A stretch of DNA of 57,758 bases. Source: Thermoproteota archaeon. Its GTDB lineage: Archaea; Thermoproteota; Methanomethylicia; Methanomethylicales; JAGHCH01. Positions within the stretch are counted from its first letter, which is position 1. Each line of letters starts with the position of its first letter. The stretch lies in contig JAGHCH010000008.1 of assembly GCA_021160575.1 (NCBI GenBank), positions 1 through 57,758 of the forward strand. The letters run 5' to 3'. Position numbers and translations under genes: made by a program. The notes under the pieces were generated by a model that saw nothing but the letters and a program-made list of their open reading frames with translations, searched no databases and was not told where the DNA came from. Below are positions 45,564 through 48,798 of this stretch, one piece after another.

Positions 45564-45599
45564 GTTGCGGCACCTAATAGAGCACTAAGCACGATAGGC

Positions 45600-45609
45600 T
45601 TAAATAATA
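45600..45609 (+). promoter_or_regulatory. TATA box upstream of the Glu/Trp microprotein
   Basis: TTAAATAATA about 45 nt before ATG 45653. GGAGGGGG (45635-45642) is SD-like. Confidence 0.45.
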
Positions 45610-45652
45610 CTTTAACCCCGCTTTTTCTGCTATTGGAGGGGGTTGCTTTAAG

Positions 45653-45775
45653 ATGAAGTATTTAATGTTCGAGGAAGAGGAGTGGGAGGAGGAGTTCGAG
45701 GAAGAGGAGGAGTGGCTCGAGGAGGAGGAATGGGAAGAAGAGGAGGAGTGGGAGGAAGAGGAGGAAGAGTGGTAG
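45653..45775 (+). CDS. 40-aa Glu/Trp-repeat acidic microprotein
   Basis: MKYLMFEEEEWEEEFEEEEEWLEEEEWEEEEEWEEEEEEW-stop. ATG with a strong SD 11 nt upstream and a TATA upstream. Below the 60-aa cut-off, so not in the ORF track. Confidence 0.5.
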   Translation: MKYLMFEEEEWEEEFEEEEEWLEEEEWEEEEEWEEEEEEW

Positions 45776-45811
45776 AAATATCCTCCCCTACCTCTTTTAT
45801 GGAGGTACGGG

Positions 45812-46105
45812 TTGGTGGAGTTCTGTCCAAGATGCGAGAAAATGTTGGTTCCGACAAGAACTGAGAAGGGAATCTACTTAGTGTGCAAAGCTTGCGGCTA
45901 CAAGAAGGCAGCTTCCAGCAAGGAAGGCTATAAGCTGGTACATGAGGTTGGAGAAGAGAAGAGGAGAACCACAATAATAGTTGAAGGAGCTGCGAGGCAG
46001 AAGGAGAAGGAAGAAGAAAGAGAGATGATGCAGGAGTATTATGACGTCTTCCTAGAGAGCTTTATGGAGACGCAGGAAGAGGAAGGCGGGGAGAGCTACG
46101 AGTAG
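45812..46105 (+). CDS. single Zn-ribbon protein (TFS/RpoM N-terminal ribbon-like) with acidic C-terminal tail
   Basis: MVEFCPRCEKMLVP...YLVCKACGY is a CxxC...CxxC ribbon. No second ribbon. Tail METQEEEGGESYE. GGAGGT SD upstream of GTG 45812. Confidence 0.6.
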   Translation: MVEFCPRCEKMLVPTRTEKGIYLVCKACGYKKAASSKEGYKLVHEVGEEKRRTTIIVEGAARQKEKEEEREMMQEYYDVFLESFMETQEEEGGESYE

Positions 46106-46135: not shown

Positions 46136-47944
46136 TTGGCAAGGATCGCAGTTATAGATAGAGAGCTCTGTAAACCACATGACTGCTATAAGGAGTGCAT
46201 TCGGTTCTGCCCGATAGTCAGAACAGGGAAGAATGCCATCTTCTTAGATGAGGAATCAAAGCGTCCAGTGATCGCTGAAAACCTCTGCACTGGCTGCGGC
46301 ATCTGCGTGAAGAAGTGTCCTTTCAAGGCTATCACAGTGGTTAATCTCCCTGACGAGCTTGAGGAGGAATGCGTCCACAGATATGGAGAGAACATGTTCA
46401 AGCTCTATAGGCTTCCCGTGCTAAAAGAAGGGAGGGTGCTAGGGCTTCTAGGACCCAACGGAGTCGGCAAGAGCACTTCAATAAAAATCCTCTCAGGGGA
46501 AATCTTTCCAAACTTGGGGAGAGTGGAGGAAGCTCCCTCTAAGGAGGAGGTCATTAGATTTTTCCGGGGGTCGGAGCTTCAGCCTTACTTTGAGAAGCTC
46601 TTCTCAGGGAAGATCAAAGTCGTGGTGAAGCCGCAGTACGTGGAAAAGATTCCAAGGGTGATCTCTGGAAGAGTGAGGAATCTCCTCGAGAGGGTTGATG
46701 AAGCTGGGAGGTTCAAAGAGGTTATAGAGCTTTTAGAGCTTGAGAAGGTGCTGGGTAGGGAGATTAAGCTTCTCAGCGGAGGAGAGCTGCAAAGGGTAGC
46801 TATAGCTGCCGCCGCTCTAAGAGATGTTGATGTTTACATGTTTGATGAGCCTTCTAGTTACTTAGACGTGAAGCAGCGCTTGAAAGCGGCTAAGCTCATT
46901 AGAAGGGTAGCTTCATGGGGCAAGACGGTGGTAGTAGCTGAGCACGACCTAGCAGTTCTCGACTACATGTCAGACCACGTGTGCATCCTCTACGGCAAGC
47001 CGGGAGTCTATGGAATAGTCTCCAAGCCTCATGGAGTGAGAAACGGCATAAACATCTACTTGGAGGGCTACCTTCCAGAGGAGAACTTGAAGTTCAGGAG
47101 GGAGCCAGTTAAGTTCTTCTACACGGCTAGAGAGGAAGCTCCGCTGGAGGAGAGGATGGCAAGCTGGGGGGATCTCGAGAAGAGGCTGGGAGATTTCACT
47201 CTTCAAGTGAGGGCAGGTGAGATCTATAGAGGAGAAATTATAGGCATTCTGGGTCCCAACGGCATTGGGAAGACCACCATGGTGAAGCTCCTGGCAGGAA
47301 TTTTGGAGCCGGATTCAGGGTATGTGGCTACTCAGCACTTGAAAATCAGCTACAAGCCGCAGTACATAGCACCAAAGACCAGCAAGACCGTGAGAGAGGT
47401 GCTGGAGGGTCTCTCTGAAGGGATTCTAAGCGACCCATGGTTTAAGACGGAGGTCTTCGAGCCTCTCACTCTGGAGCCGCTTCTAGACCAGCCAGTGGAC
47501 ACCCTAAGTGGAGGGGAGCTGCAGAGGGTGGCGATAGCCGCGTGCATAGCGCAGGAGTCGGAACTCTACCTCTTCGATGAACCGAGTGCACACCTCGACG
47601 TGGAGCAGAGATTGGCTGTAGCAAGAGTCATTAGAAGAGTCACCGAGAAGAGAAGAGCAGCCACCTTTGTGGTTGAGCACGATTTAATAGCCATGGATCT
47701 CATCACGGATAGAATGATGGTCTTCTCCGGAGAGCCGGGAGTCAAAGGCATGGCAAACCCCCCCACCAGCTTGAGGAAGGGGATGAACCAGTTCCTTAGG
47801 GAGGTTGGAATAACCTTTAGAAGAGATCCTTCAACTGGGAGGCCAAGAGCTAACAAAGAGAGTTCATGGCTAGATAGGCACCAAAAAGAGATAGGGGAGT
47901 ACTTCTATGCTGTAGTTTCTGAAGAGGAGGGAGGGGAGGAGTGA
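46136..47944 (+). CDS. abcE1: ABCE1 ribosome-recycling ATPase (RNase L inhibitor homologue)
   Basis: N-terminal 2x[4Fe-4S] region (CKPHDC..CIRFCP; CTGCGICVKKCP) and twin ABC cassettes (GPNGVGKST, LSGGELQRV; GPNGIGKTT, LSGGELQRV). Confidence 0.95.
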   Translation: MARIAVIDRELCKPHDCYKECIRFCPIVRTGKNAIFLDEESKRPVIAENLCTGCGICVKKCPFKAITVVNLPDELEEECVHRYGENMFKLYRLPVLKEGRVLGLLGPNGVGKSTSIKILSGEIFPNLGRVEEAPSKEEVIRFFRGSELQPYFEKLFSGKIKVVVKPQYVEKIPRVISGRVRNLLERVDEAGRFKEVIELLELEKVLGREIKLLSGGELQRVAIAAAALRDVDVYMFDEPSSYLDVKQRLKAAKLIRRVASWGKTVVVAEHDLAVLDYMSDHVCILYGKPGVYGIVSKPHGVRNGINIYLEGYLPEENLKFRREPVKFFYTAREEAPLEERMASWGDLEKRLGDFTLQVRAGEIYRGEIIGILGPNGIGKTTMVKLLAGILEPDSGYVATQHLKISYKPQYIAPKTSKTVREVLEGLSEGILSDPWFKTEVFEPLTLEPLLDQPVDTLSGGELQRVAIAACIAQESELYLFDEPSAHLDVEQRLAVARVIRRVTEKRRAATFVVEHDLIAMDLITDRMMVFSGEPGVKGMANPPTSLRKGMNQFLREVGITFRRDPSTGRPRANKESSWLDRHQKEIGEYFYAVVSEEEGGEE

Positions 47945-48798
47945 TCAAGGAATTCATGCTGATGGGGCTGCTCACAGCGATACTTTTAGCGATAGGCTTT
48001 GTCGTAGGGTGGGTGTTCGGCAACCCGGAAGGAGTGATGCTCATAGCACTGTTCATCGCGGCAGCTATGAACATACTGGCGTACTTCCACAGTGACAAGA
48101 TAGTTTTGAAGATGACTGGCGCGAAGCTGGTATCCGAAGACGAGGCTCCAGAGCTGTATGCCATAGTTGAGAGAGTGGCGATGAGAGCTGGTCTGCCTAA
48201 ACCCAAGGTGGCAATAATTGACACTCCAGTTCCCAATGCTTTCGCCACCGGAAGAAATCCAAGGAACGCCGTGGTAGCAGTTACGACTGGGCTCCTCCGC
48301 CACCTCTCGAGGAGTGAGGTAGAGGCGGTGATAGGCCACGAGATGGCGCACATCAAGCATAGAGACATCTTAATCTCTGCCATGGCAGCCACAATAGCGG
48401 GAGCCATAGCCTACCTAGCGATGATAGGGCGATTCAGCATCTGGTTTGCAGACGAAGATAGAGGAGAGGCATCTCTACTTGCGCTTCTAGCTGGAATTCT
48501 AGCACCTATAGCAGCAGTGCTAGTGCAGGCTGCAATTAGCAGGGAAAGAGAGTTCAAGGCAGATGAGAGAGGGGCCAAGATCACTGGAAAGCCCTTAGCA
48601 CTGGCGTCAGCCCTCGAGAAGATAGAGGCGGTTGTAAGTAGAGGCTACACCATTAGGGCTAATCCAGCTACAAGCTCACTGTGGATAGTCAACCCGATAA
48701 GGGGAGATGCCCTCTACGAACTCTTCTCCACGCATCCTCCAACGTGGAAGAGAGTTGAAAGGCTTAGGAGGCTTGCTCGGCAGCTCATGGGAAGCTAG
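47941..48798 (+). CDS. htpX: HtpX-family M48 membrane protease
   Basis: HEMAHIKHRD zincin motif, 4 TM segments, FSTHPP. Confidence 0.9.
   Translation: MIKEFMLMGLLTAILLAIGFVVGWVFGNPEGVMLIALFIAAAMNILAYFHSDKIVLKMTGAKLVSEDEAPELYAIVERVAMRAGLPKPKVAIIDTPVPNAFATGRNPRNAVVAVTTGLLRHLSRSEVEAVIGHEMAHIKHRDILISAMAATIAGAIAYLAMIGRFSIWFADEDRGEASLLALLAGILAPIAAVLVQAAISREREFKADERGAKITGKPLALASALEKIEAVVSRGYTIRANPATSSLWIVNPIRGDALYELFSTHPPTWKRVERLRRLARQLMGS

Follow-up and report, generated by a model that had tools for sequence, protein, structure and literature searches.

An unannotated Glu/Trp microprotein gene, conserved in Thermoproteota and tied by its genomic neighbourhood to the ribosome-recycling ATPase ABCE1

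The 57,758-nucleotide (nt) stretch of contig JAGHCH010000008.1 analysed here (assembly GCA_021160575.1; hereafter the window) comes from a Thermoproteota archaeon of the order Methanomethylicales and contains, a short distance upstream of the gene for the ribosome-recycling ATPase ABCE1, a small open reading frame (ORF) for a peptide rich in Glu and Trp. Judged by comparison with related genomes, this microORF is a real coding gene under purifying selection and not a repeat artefact; it is conserved, unannotated and, by its genomic context, tied to ABCE1. The gene lies on the forward strand at 45653..45775 (40 codons and a stop; ATG at 45653, TAG at 45773-45775) and is the first cistron of its transcription unit. 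Its product of 40 amino acids (aa), MKYLMFEEEEWEEEFEEEEEWLEEEEWEEEEEWEEEEEEW, carries Trp at positions 11, 21, 27, 33 and 40 and Phe at positions 6 and 15. The acidic run begins at codon 7, and at codons 4-8 in relatives. A TATA-like box, CTTAAATA (45599..45606, forward strand), is located ~47-54 nt 5' of the start and is predicted to act as promoter, and the Shine-Dalgarno (SD) sequence GGAGGGGG, which includes GGAGG, was read at 45635..45642 on the same strand. The source is a 1.40-Mb metagenome-assembled genome (MAG) that is 92% complete and the sole representative of its family among the genomes compared.

The whole genome has 30,626 open frames that reach 25 aa, and the microORF alone among them contains a 30-aa segment of at least 60% Asp/Glu. 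The gene downstream of it in the window encodes a Zn-ribbon protein, an orthologue of which was found in 40 relatives, 28 of them Methanomethylicaceae, and the DNA upstream of these orthologues was then read. All 28 Methanomethylicaceae loci have an equivalent small ORF with start, SD sequence and Trp-stop end in frame, and in all 28 the motif (A/G)(A/C)TTAAATA stands at equal distance, ~50 nt 5'. The Methanomethylicaceae orthologues start with ATG, GTG or TTG, are preceded by GGAGG or GGGGG 5-13 nt upstream and run in frame throughout over 34-51 codons. They share a common plan, in which a short hydrophobic N-terminus, M-[LFY]-[YH]-[LM], is followed by [DE]DFE[DE]DW, then by [DE]4-6-W-P repeats and finally by F-[DE]4-7-W-stop. 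W21, W27 and W40 are invariant in the alignment; conservation is highest at the Trp residues, including the one encoded by the final codon. The original prediction had proposed, from the letters of the window alone, that the small ORF is a genuine gene whose conservation should be examined in relatives, and the ORF was indeed found in frame in every relative of the same order that was examined.

The pattern of substitutions leads to the same result. In 17 pairs of orthologues of equal length, 120 codon differences are synonymous and 40 non-synonymous, and 23 of the latter exchange Asp and Glu; pN/pS is ~0.01-0.1 in Methanomethylicaceae orthologue pairs. For the members of the Glu/Trp type the ratio is 104 synonymous to 51 non-synonymous differences, where only about one in nine single-base changes of a GAR codon (R, purine) is synonymous. 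Purine-only codons other than GAR are scarce in this set (Lys 1.7%), so the ORF cannot be regarded as a mere polypurine tract. Moreover, exchanges between GAR and GAY (Y, pyrimidine) interrupt the polypurine run, which argues that the amino acids are under selection, as opposed to a GA-rich element of the nucleic acid. A Pro-rich ORF on the opposite strand (45648-45974), which had been considered an artefact of the repeat, can be dismissed as such, because the substitution pattern fits the sense frame alone. As a separate observation, the 5' untranslated region (UTR) between TATA box and SD sequence, 20-45 nt 5' of the start, is conserved across several genera of Methanomethylicaceae (CCAAAATCC...GCGTTCTCGGAGG in one example) and exceeds what a bare promoter and SD sequence would need.

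The gene extends well beyond the Methanomethylicales. We used a strict DNA pattern that is blind to neighbouring genes and that the ORF of the window itself matches, W-E3-x0-4-W-E3-x0-4-W-stop. It matched 80 of 401 species-representative Thermoproteota genomes, nearly always once per genome, and skips variants, so that families without a match are not thereby shown to be without the gene; the reversed control pattern had zero matches in the same 401 genomes. A variant with Asp/Glu runs and Trp-Pro was found in 27 further Methanomethylicaceae genomes on top of the 80. In metagenomes, the strict pattern occurred in at least 120 contigs, from which 78 loci were usable. Members of the family measure 19-55 aa, with a Trp or Phe every 4-8 residues; a set of 63 members (21-55 aa, median 30) consists of 67% Glu, 17% Trp and 2% Phe, and in the Methanomethylicaceae mixed Asp/Glu runs replace the Glu runs. 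The final residue is always Trp, and 36 of the 63 have neither Lys nor Arg. An SD motif, GGAGG or GGGGG, precedes 43 of these 63 Glu/Trp members across Thermoproteota.

The census of neighbourhoods covered 81 loci from the 80 Thermoproteota genomes that match the strict pattern. ABCE1 is found within 2.5 kb at 59 of the 81 loci, with ~0.3 expected by chance, and in ~19 of the 26 Genome Taxonomy Database (GTDB) families that have a match; the family count is the fairer measure, as related genomes are not independent and raw locus counts overstate the statistics. The gene stands directly upstream of ABCE1 at 36 loci and in the order microORF, Zn-ribbon gene, ABCE1 at 7. It is co-directional with ABCE1 at a greater distance at 6 loci, divergent from the ABCE1 or Zn-ribbon-ABCE1 unit at 9 (including those of Staphylothermus and Thermosphaera), downstream of ABCE1 at 1 and not near ABCE1 at 22. 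In the metagenomes, the ABCE1 start follows 50-400 nt downstream on the same strand at ~37 of the 78 loci, mostly with no Zn-ribbon gene in between. The adjacent ABCE1 was identified by exact identity in Sulfolobus acidocaldarius (AAY80056.1) and S. acidocaldarius SUSAZ, and likewise in Pyrodictium abyssi, P. delaneyi, Ca. Nezhaarchaeales and Ignisphaera. Further carriers are, presumably, Staphylothermus marinus, S. hellenicus, Thermosphaera aggregans and Ignisphaera aggregans.

Since a neighbourhood that is conserved in changing arrangements points to a functional link between the products, the microprotein is, on the evidence of gene order, functionally tied to ABCE1. The association with ABCE1 that had been noted in the window is thus real, and stronger than that with the Zn-ribbon gene, which in most lineages does not intervene. 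A scan of the contigs with a Zn-ribbon profile also revealed the microORF 5' of a Zn-ribbon-ABCE1 pair in MAGs that carry the labels Desulfurococcales and Thermoprotei; these MAGs are on the opposite side of the ABCE1 tree from the window. In one family of the window's class (f4), the Zn-ribbon gene is located elsewhere (L031) and the microORF still lies directly before ABCE1 (L311); for this reason we regard ABCE1 as its primary link.

This evidence bears on the idea that the acidic peptide serves as a partner of the Zn-ribbon protein in an RNA-polymerase-related role, binding its basic N-domain or its C-terminal helix. The two genes do adjoin in the window, as they do throughout the Methanomethylicaceae and in several lineages besides. 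The first 70 residues of the Zn-ribbon protein are basic (+3 to +7) with an acidic tail behind them, and in an artificial fusion obtained by reading through the stop codon the predicted local distance difference test score (pLDDT) of its C-terminal helix rose from ~75 to ~95 in the presence of the microprotein. That fusion model, however, carries no contact data. The preponderance of loci directly on ABCE1 over those that reach it through the Zn-ribbon gene (36 versus 7) speaks against such a partnership, as do the Thermofilaceae, which have the Zn-ribbon-ABCE1 pair without a microORF at the locus, and the arrangement in family f4. We therefore consider a role centred on the Zn-ribbon protein very improbable.

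Whether the ORF works through its product or as a leader in cis can be judged from the way it is arranged. A run of at least five T follows within 60 nt of the stop codon in 31 of the 36 copies directly upstream of ABCE1. Of these 36, 17 have a TATA-like hexamer positioned 15-70 nt ahead of the start of ABCE1, compared with 17.5% of coding control windows. Because of these oligo-T runs and TATA-like motifs, the divergent loci, the loci elsewhere in the genome and the changing arrangements, the microprotein most likely acts in trans, and a cis-acting leader is disfavoured by the sequence data.

The competing explanation holds that translation of a poly-acidic peptide destabilises or pauses ribosomes and thereby sets the translation of the Zn-ribbon protein and ABCE1, as a feedback on recycling capacity. 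In the window and in the Methanomethylicales the microORF is the first cistron, 23-39 nt before the next start, with no evident promoter for ABCE1, as would suit a leader. In bacteria and eukaryotes, Asp/Glu runs that are interspersed with Pro and close to the N-terminus are known to abort translation (10.1101/2021.02.02.429294; PMC9718836). Recycling after such aborts involves eIF2D and an interplay with ABCE1 (PMC12673854), and in mammalian cells GA-rich sequence ahead of a stop codon favours pausing at termination (PMC13341110). With leaders that act by intrinsic ribosome destabilization (IRD) or of the MgtL type, the microORF shares Asp/Glu runs that set in during the first 5-7 codons, in the Methanomethylicaceae interspersed with Pro (as Trp-Pro punctuation), and, here, a position in the 5' part of the messenger RNA (mRNA) of an essential gene. 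In contrast to such leaders, the family gene is mostly a separate unit or divergent from ABCE1 (9 loci divergent and 22 elsewhere, besides the copies set apart by oligo-T runs and TATA-like motifs), its Trp residues and C-terminus are the most conserved parts, and no alternative RNA structures were found. Simple destabilisation by an acidic run would not require Trp to be conserved up to the C-terminus, and no conserved RNA switch was found: duplex energies equal those of shuffled sequences and T runs occur in some genera only. A leader acting in cis is accordingly rated as quite unlikely, and action in trans is retained.

Two more specific versions of regulation in cis were considered, and neither was supported. 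Duplexes between the ORF end and the pyrimidine tract behind it have predicted energies from -10 to -14 kcal/mol, which composition-matched shuffles reach equally well, and runs of T5-7 are confined to some Methanomethylicaceae genera; hence, a translation-sensitive hairpin or terminator was discarded as a family-wide feature. The original prediction had also mentioned a regulatory leader peptide rich in Trp codons, and this suggestion was not supported. The genes downstream (Zn-ribbon protein, ABCE1 and HtpX) are unrelated to Trp, pairing is at the level of shuffles, neither an Rfam match nor an RNA switch beyond what composition gives was found, and many family loci are divergent, separated by T runs and TATA-like motifs, or distant; attenuation of the Trp-operon type was therefore discarded. 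It may be added that in most Methanomethylicaceae (spacers of loci L003-L030) a pyrimidine-rich tract (75-100% C/T over 12 nt) comes right after the stop, followed by T3-T7, and that this tract can pair with the GA-rich end of the ORF or, in the window, with the SD sequence of the Zn-ribbon gene (TACCTC...GAGGTA).

As to how the product might act, we favour, on balance and with moderate confidence, a trans-acting Glu/Trp microprotein that is tied to ABCE1 and likely docks on ABCE1 or on an ABCE1-bound ribosomal subunit. In the source genome, it would be made from the same mRNA as the TFS-like Zn-ribbon protein, ABCE1 and HtpX. As a polyanionic, helix-prone peptide it could dock by electrostatics together with its Trp anchors, either on ABCE1 itself or on the ABCE1-bound subunit, and might thereby tune the recruitment of ABCE1 or the activation of its ATPase. 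In an AlphaFold2 (AF2) prediction, made for an artificial construct in which TAG is read through and with unpaired alignment rows, the microprotein forms one long helix (residues 3-42, pLDDT 85-93); the construct gives weak evidence of helix propensity and holds no contact information. Physical binding to ABCE1, the site of binding and the functional effect are inferred.

The most concrete model, along the lines already suggested in the original prediction, is mimicry of the acidic/hydrophobic C-terminal tail of the stalk protein aP1, or competition with it, on nucleotide-binding domain 1 (NBD1) of ABCE1. The C-terminal helix of aP1 follows an acidic linker; its residues L103, L106 and F107 enter a hydrophobic cavity of NBD1, and the helix contacts R227 of ABCE1 and is needed for ATPase activation (PMC6125642). 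Like this tail, an acidic stretch that ends in bulky hydrophobic or aromatic residues, the microprotein is acidic and ends in Trp. The aP1 tail is disordered when free, helical when bound and a ligand of both ABCE1 NBD1 and translational GTPases (PMC6125642), and the microprotein is predicted to be helix-prone. On the other hand, the microprotein is free-standing, with its own start, SD sequence and predicted promoter, whereas aP1 comprises ~100 aa with a dimerisation domain. It also has several Trp anchors and far more Glu, and shows no detectable homology to aP1.

Alternatively, the microprotein may bind the post-splitting 30S-ABCE1 complex in a manner resembling eIF3j, whose N-terminal acidic motif consists of acidic runs centred on Trp. 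Acidic runs around Trp are common to both, and one metagenome microORF precedes an aIF1A-like gene; this likeness is compositional only. Unlike the microprotein, eIF3j has ~250 aa and additional domains, and the RNA recognition motif (RRM) of eIF3b is the binding partner of its acidic motif; the two are not homologous, the microproteins having no Pfam match. To our knowledge, archaea lack the eIF3b RRM. In eukaryotes, eIF3j/Hcr1 works with ABCE1 at the interface of recycling and initiation (PMC7780240). The fuller proposal that the microprotein is a dedicated component of ribosome recycling in about a quarter of Thermoproteota, a free-standing ligand of ABCE1 or of the post-splitting 30S-ABCE1 complex that either controls, as a soluble stalk-tail mimic, how ABCE1 reaches the stalk and the ribosome or acts in an eIF3j-like way, is put forward tentatively; we find it possible, yet would not call it probable.

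Besides the non-independence of related genomes, several points weigh against a role devoted to ABCE1 or against docking in the form proposed. The 22 of 81 loci that are not near ABCE1, from ~7 families, would also fit a more general role. In family f5, which belongs to the window's class, the microORF MFEEEWEEEEPEEWEEEEWEEEEWEEEW (L284 and L285) is not near ABCE1, and a metagenome locus that matches f5 (L197) has it 115 nt 5' of a gene whose N-terminal sequence reads as RadA-like. Another metagenome locus (L201) carries an acidic/Trp ORF (...EEFDEDWEEDWEEEWEEEW), and 32 nt beyond its end follows a gene with an aIF1A-like sequence. The LxxLF motif of aP1 is not present in the microprotein. Finally, a high pLDDT may be generic behaviour of AF2 towards poly-Glu helices.

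A more general role could be that of a polyanionic decoy or chaperone, either a disordered adaptor like DSS1 or a nucleic-acid mimic, as the original prediction had also considered, on basic proteins (for instance ribosomal proteins, binders of DNA or RNA, or recombination factors), with the proximity to ABCE1 reflecting co-expression of housekeeping genes. A composition of ~67% Glu and 17% Trp, with 36 of 63 members devoid of Lys and Arg, resembles acidic/aromatic adaptors, and the members found upstream of the RadA-like (L197, L284, L285) and aIF1A-like (L201) genes and in other contexts would agree with it, as would a sub-family with a basic N-terminus, f25, that is never near ABCE1. DSS1/Sem1 is likewise small, very acidic and disordered, uses Trp/Phe anchors and serves as an adaptor and DNA mimic, and one lineage of the microORF lies upstream of a RadA-like gene; it differs in being eukaryotic, in its ~70-90 aa and in a much less extreme composition. 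The DSS1_SEM1 family (PF05160) was matched by 0 of 16 family members even at E<=10, and the strict pattern had no match in 151 Asgard genomes (0/151); the latter result argues against a direct line from the microprotein to eukaryotes. Co-expression alone can hardly explain why ABCE1 is within 2.5 kb at 59 of 81 loci, in ~19 families and in three arrangements. A general polyanion of this kind thus appears unlikely to us, and we keep to the link with ABCE1.

A different kind of link to ABCE1 would be that of an adaptor in Fe-S maturation, in which the C-terminal Trp acts like that of Lto1 or like the tripeptide [LIM]-[DES]-[WF], which targets clients to the cytosolic Fe-S assembly (CIA) targeting complex (PMC10245660). 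ABCE1 carries two 4Fe-4S clusters, its eukaryotic counterpart Rli1 needs Yae1-Lto1, and the C-terminal Trp of Lto1 is essential (PMC4523923). Nearly all family members end in Glu/Asp-Trp, just as the tripeptide ends in [DES]-[WF] (PMC10245660). However, the residue at position -3 is Glu or Asp (rarely Phe or Val) and never Leu, Ile or Met, so that the consensus of the tripeptide is not matched, and a deca-GX3 motif is missing. These archaea are not known to possess the CIA targeting complex (Cia1/Cia2/Met18), and no search for CIA proteins was made here. This reading is given very little credence. A carrier protein of the LysW/ArgW type, which would have a Zn-ribbon N-domain and EDWGE at the C-terminus, was rejected: the peptide of the window has no Cys and no Zn ribbon and ends in EEEEEEW, and an internal WEDWGE occurs in f25 alone.

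The family is unnamed and essentially unannotated. Pfam, NCBIfam and Rfam have no match to the microORF, and Rfam has none in the whole region. An hmmscan of 16 members against Pfam-A gave no family at E<=10, nor did the window peptide alone at E<=0.01. None of ten family peptides was present in a collection of 15 billion proteins, and a protein search with the window peptide over the relatives returned zero hits. A profile search recovered just half of the known orthologues, and HMMER-based searches missed most members. Searches of large protein libraries yielded 6 matches in one and 3 in a representative library of 1.84 billion; these few database entries are all designated 'hypothetical', with N-termini that are wrongly over-extended. 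Because of the handling of low complexity and the absence of gene calls, protein-space searches are almost blind to the family, which DNA patterns do recover. The literature searched contained no report of a small acidic/Trp protein next to ABCE1.

All archaea and eukaryotes have ABCE1, which is essential to them, and its archaeal partners (aRF1 or aPelota, the stalk and the 30S subunit) are thought to be known. A single-copy, strongly conserved gene beside it in at least ~19 Thermoproteota families escaped annotation, most likely because it has 19-55 codons in DNA of low-complexity appearance and is expected to give no tryptic peptides. This serves as a warning that low-complexity filters conceal real genes. 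If the microprotein does bind ABCE1 or the recycling complex, it would represent a new regulatory layer on recycling and on the transition from there to initiation. The proposal is directly testable, as Sulfolobus acidocaldarius, which is genetically tractable, has the gene, and so do the cultured genera Pyrodictium, Ignisphaera, Staphylothermus and Thermosphaera.

In S. acidocaldarius, the microORF (...VLVFEEDWEEEFEEFEEEEDWEEEEDWEEEW*) ends at 534834 on the reverse strand of NC_007181.1, with candidate starts at ~534920-534935; it stands 49 nt 5' of the ABCE1 gene Saci_0672, and a T6 run and CTATAAATA separate its stop from the GTG start of Saci_0672. The box TTTTATAA on the reverse strand of NC_007181.1 is a putative promoter element of this microORF. 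According to the RefSeq entries in the supplement of PMC12817955, as far as it was accessible, Saci_0672 occupies 532970..534784 on the reverse strand and the next feature is tRNA-Arg (Saci_0674) at 535180. The gap of 395 nt between them (534785-535179) holds the microORF and is without an annotated feature in the accessible part of the RefSeq GFF given there (PMC12817955). Nor does the same portion of that file contain the old tag Saci_0673 (PMC12817955). For S. acidocaldarius, the transcript-atlas supplements, in the portions available, are without a feature at 5348xx-5349xx, and none of 9 candidate ORFs from all frames of the gap is contained in the 15-billion-protein collection.

Turning to the other genes of the window, all on the forward strand, the microORF is followed by an intercistronic spacer (45776..45814) with the pyrimidine-rich tract CCTCCCCTACCTC, a T4 run and the SD sequence GGAGGT (45800-45805) of the Zn-ribbon gene. 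The latter could start 36 nt (TTG at 45812) or 39 nt (GTG at 45815) past the microORF stop, and it is GTG 45815 that is kept as the start in relatives, giving 45815..46105 for a TFS/Rpb9-like single Zn-ribbon protein of 96 aa. After 30 nt follows ABCE1 (RLI; 46136..47944), with Pfam Fer4_RLI and two ABC_tran domains. The last gene of the operon encodes an HtpX-type M48 protease (47941..48798; Pfam Peptidase_M48, E 8e-38), and begins with the GTG at 47941, so that it shares 4 nt with the end of ABCE1; htpX is also located 3' of ABCE1 in Methanomethylicaceae loci. By inspection, the short spacers between the cistrons of this operon contain no TATA-like motif. The short T4 run and the gap of 36-39 nt fit co-transcription of the microORF with the Zn-ribbon gene in this genome. 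All coordinates of the original prediction, together with its TATA box, SD sequence, gaps of 36 and 30 nt and htpX overlap, were reproduced from the sequence. Upstream of the microORF lie divergent neighbours, namely genes for Sua5/YrdC, a THUMP protein and Cgi121.

In this genome the Zn-ribbon ORF is in frame with the microORF at a distance of 159 nt, and TAG is the only stop between them; its read-through would fuse the two and was therefore considered. Since the spacing varies between 23 and 36 nt in relatives and the frame relation is not kept, programmed read-through was rejected.

The Zn-ribbon protein matches PF02150 (E 1e-7; 32.2 bits against a cut-off of 25.2) and, in part, TIGR01384 (profile positions 1-59 of 101; 41 bits against a cut-off of 64.75). 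In a profile search of the Protein Data Bank (PDB), TFS4/RpoM-2 (7oqy_Y) was the best match, along with the N-ribbon and linker of Rpb9 (E 8e-6 to 4e-5 for the TFS4 and Rpb9 matches). In the AF2 model, residues 1-32 form a ribbon and residues 60-90 a helix, besides strands and a tail that is disordered, and the top Foldseek matches of this model were Rpb9 chains. A second TFIIS-type ribbon with its catalytic acidic hairpin is not found in the protein, which has four Cys only. N-ribbon and linker are thus common to TFS4/Rpb9, whereas a conserved amphipathic helix with the pattern ERELMxEYYEVFLE[ST]F, together with the acidic tail, stands in place of the second ribbon. In Methanomethylicales, Thermofilaceae, Desulfurococcaceae and other Thermoproteota the gene adjoins ABCE1 and not transcription genes; a transcription-factor-like fold is kept beside a translation factor. 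A TFS paralogue of two-ribbon length is encoded elsewhere in the source genome (C107:11996-12187).

Further observations concern unusual family members. The sub-family f25 (L268-L272; in metagenomes L143, L186 and L213) has the pattern MS[KR][KR]KxPPK-E8-11-WEDWG-E3-5-W-E4-5-W-E6-7-W, with the basic N-terminus and the internal WEDWGE; in its metagenome contigs, an ORF that by eye resembles an ATP-grasp enzyme lies ~160 nt downstream. One genome of 1.83 Mb contains two near-identical copies (L294 and L295), neither of them near ABCE1, in which a longer open frame (...PIPVSCEEYCKKEEDEEEEELWEEFEEEWEQEDEWEEEWEEEEEW) may have the Glu/Trp stretch as its C-terminal tail. In the window, the Zn-ribbon protein (...QEEEGGESYE, 46076-46102) and ABCE1 (...VVSEEEGGEE, 47915-47941) have similar acidic EEEGGE tails.

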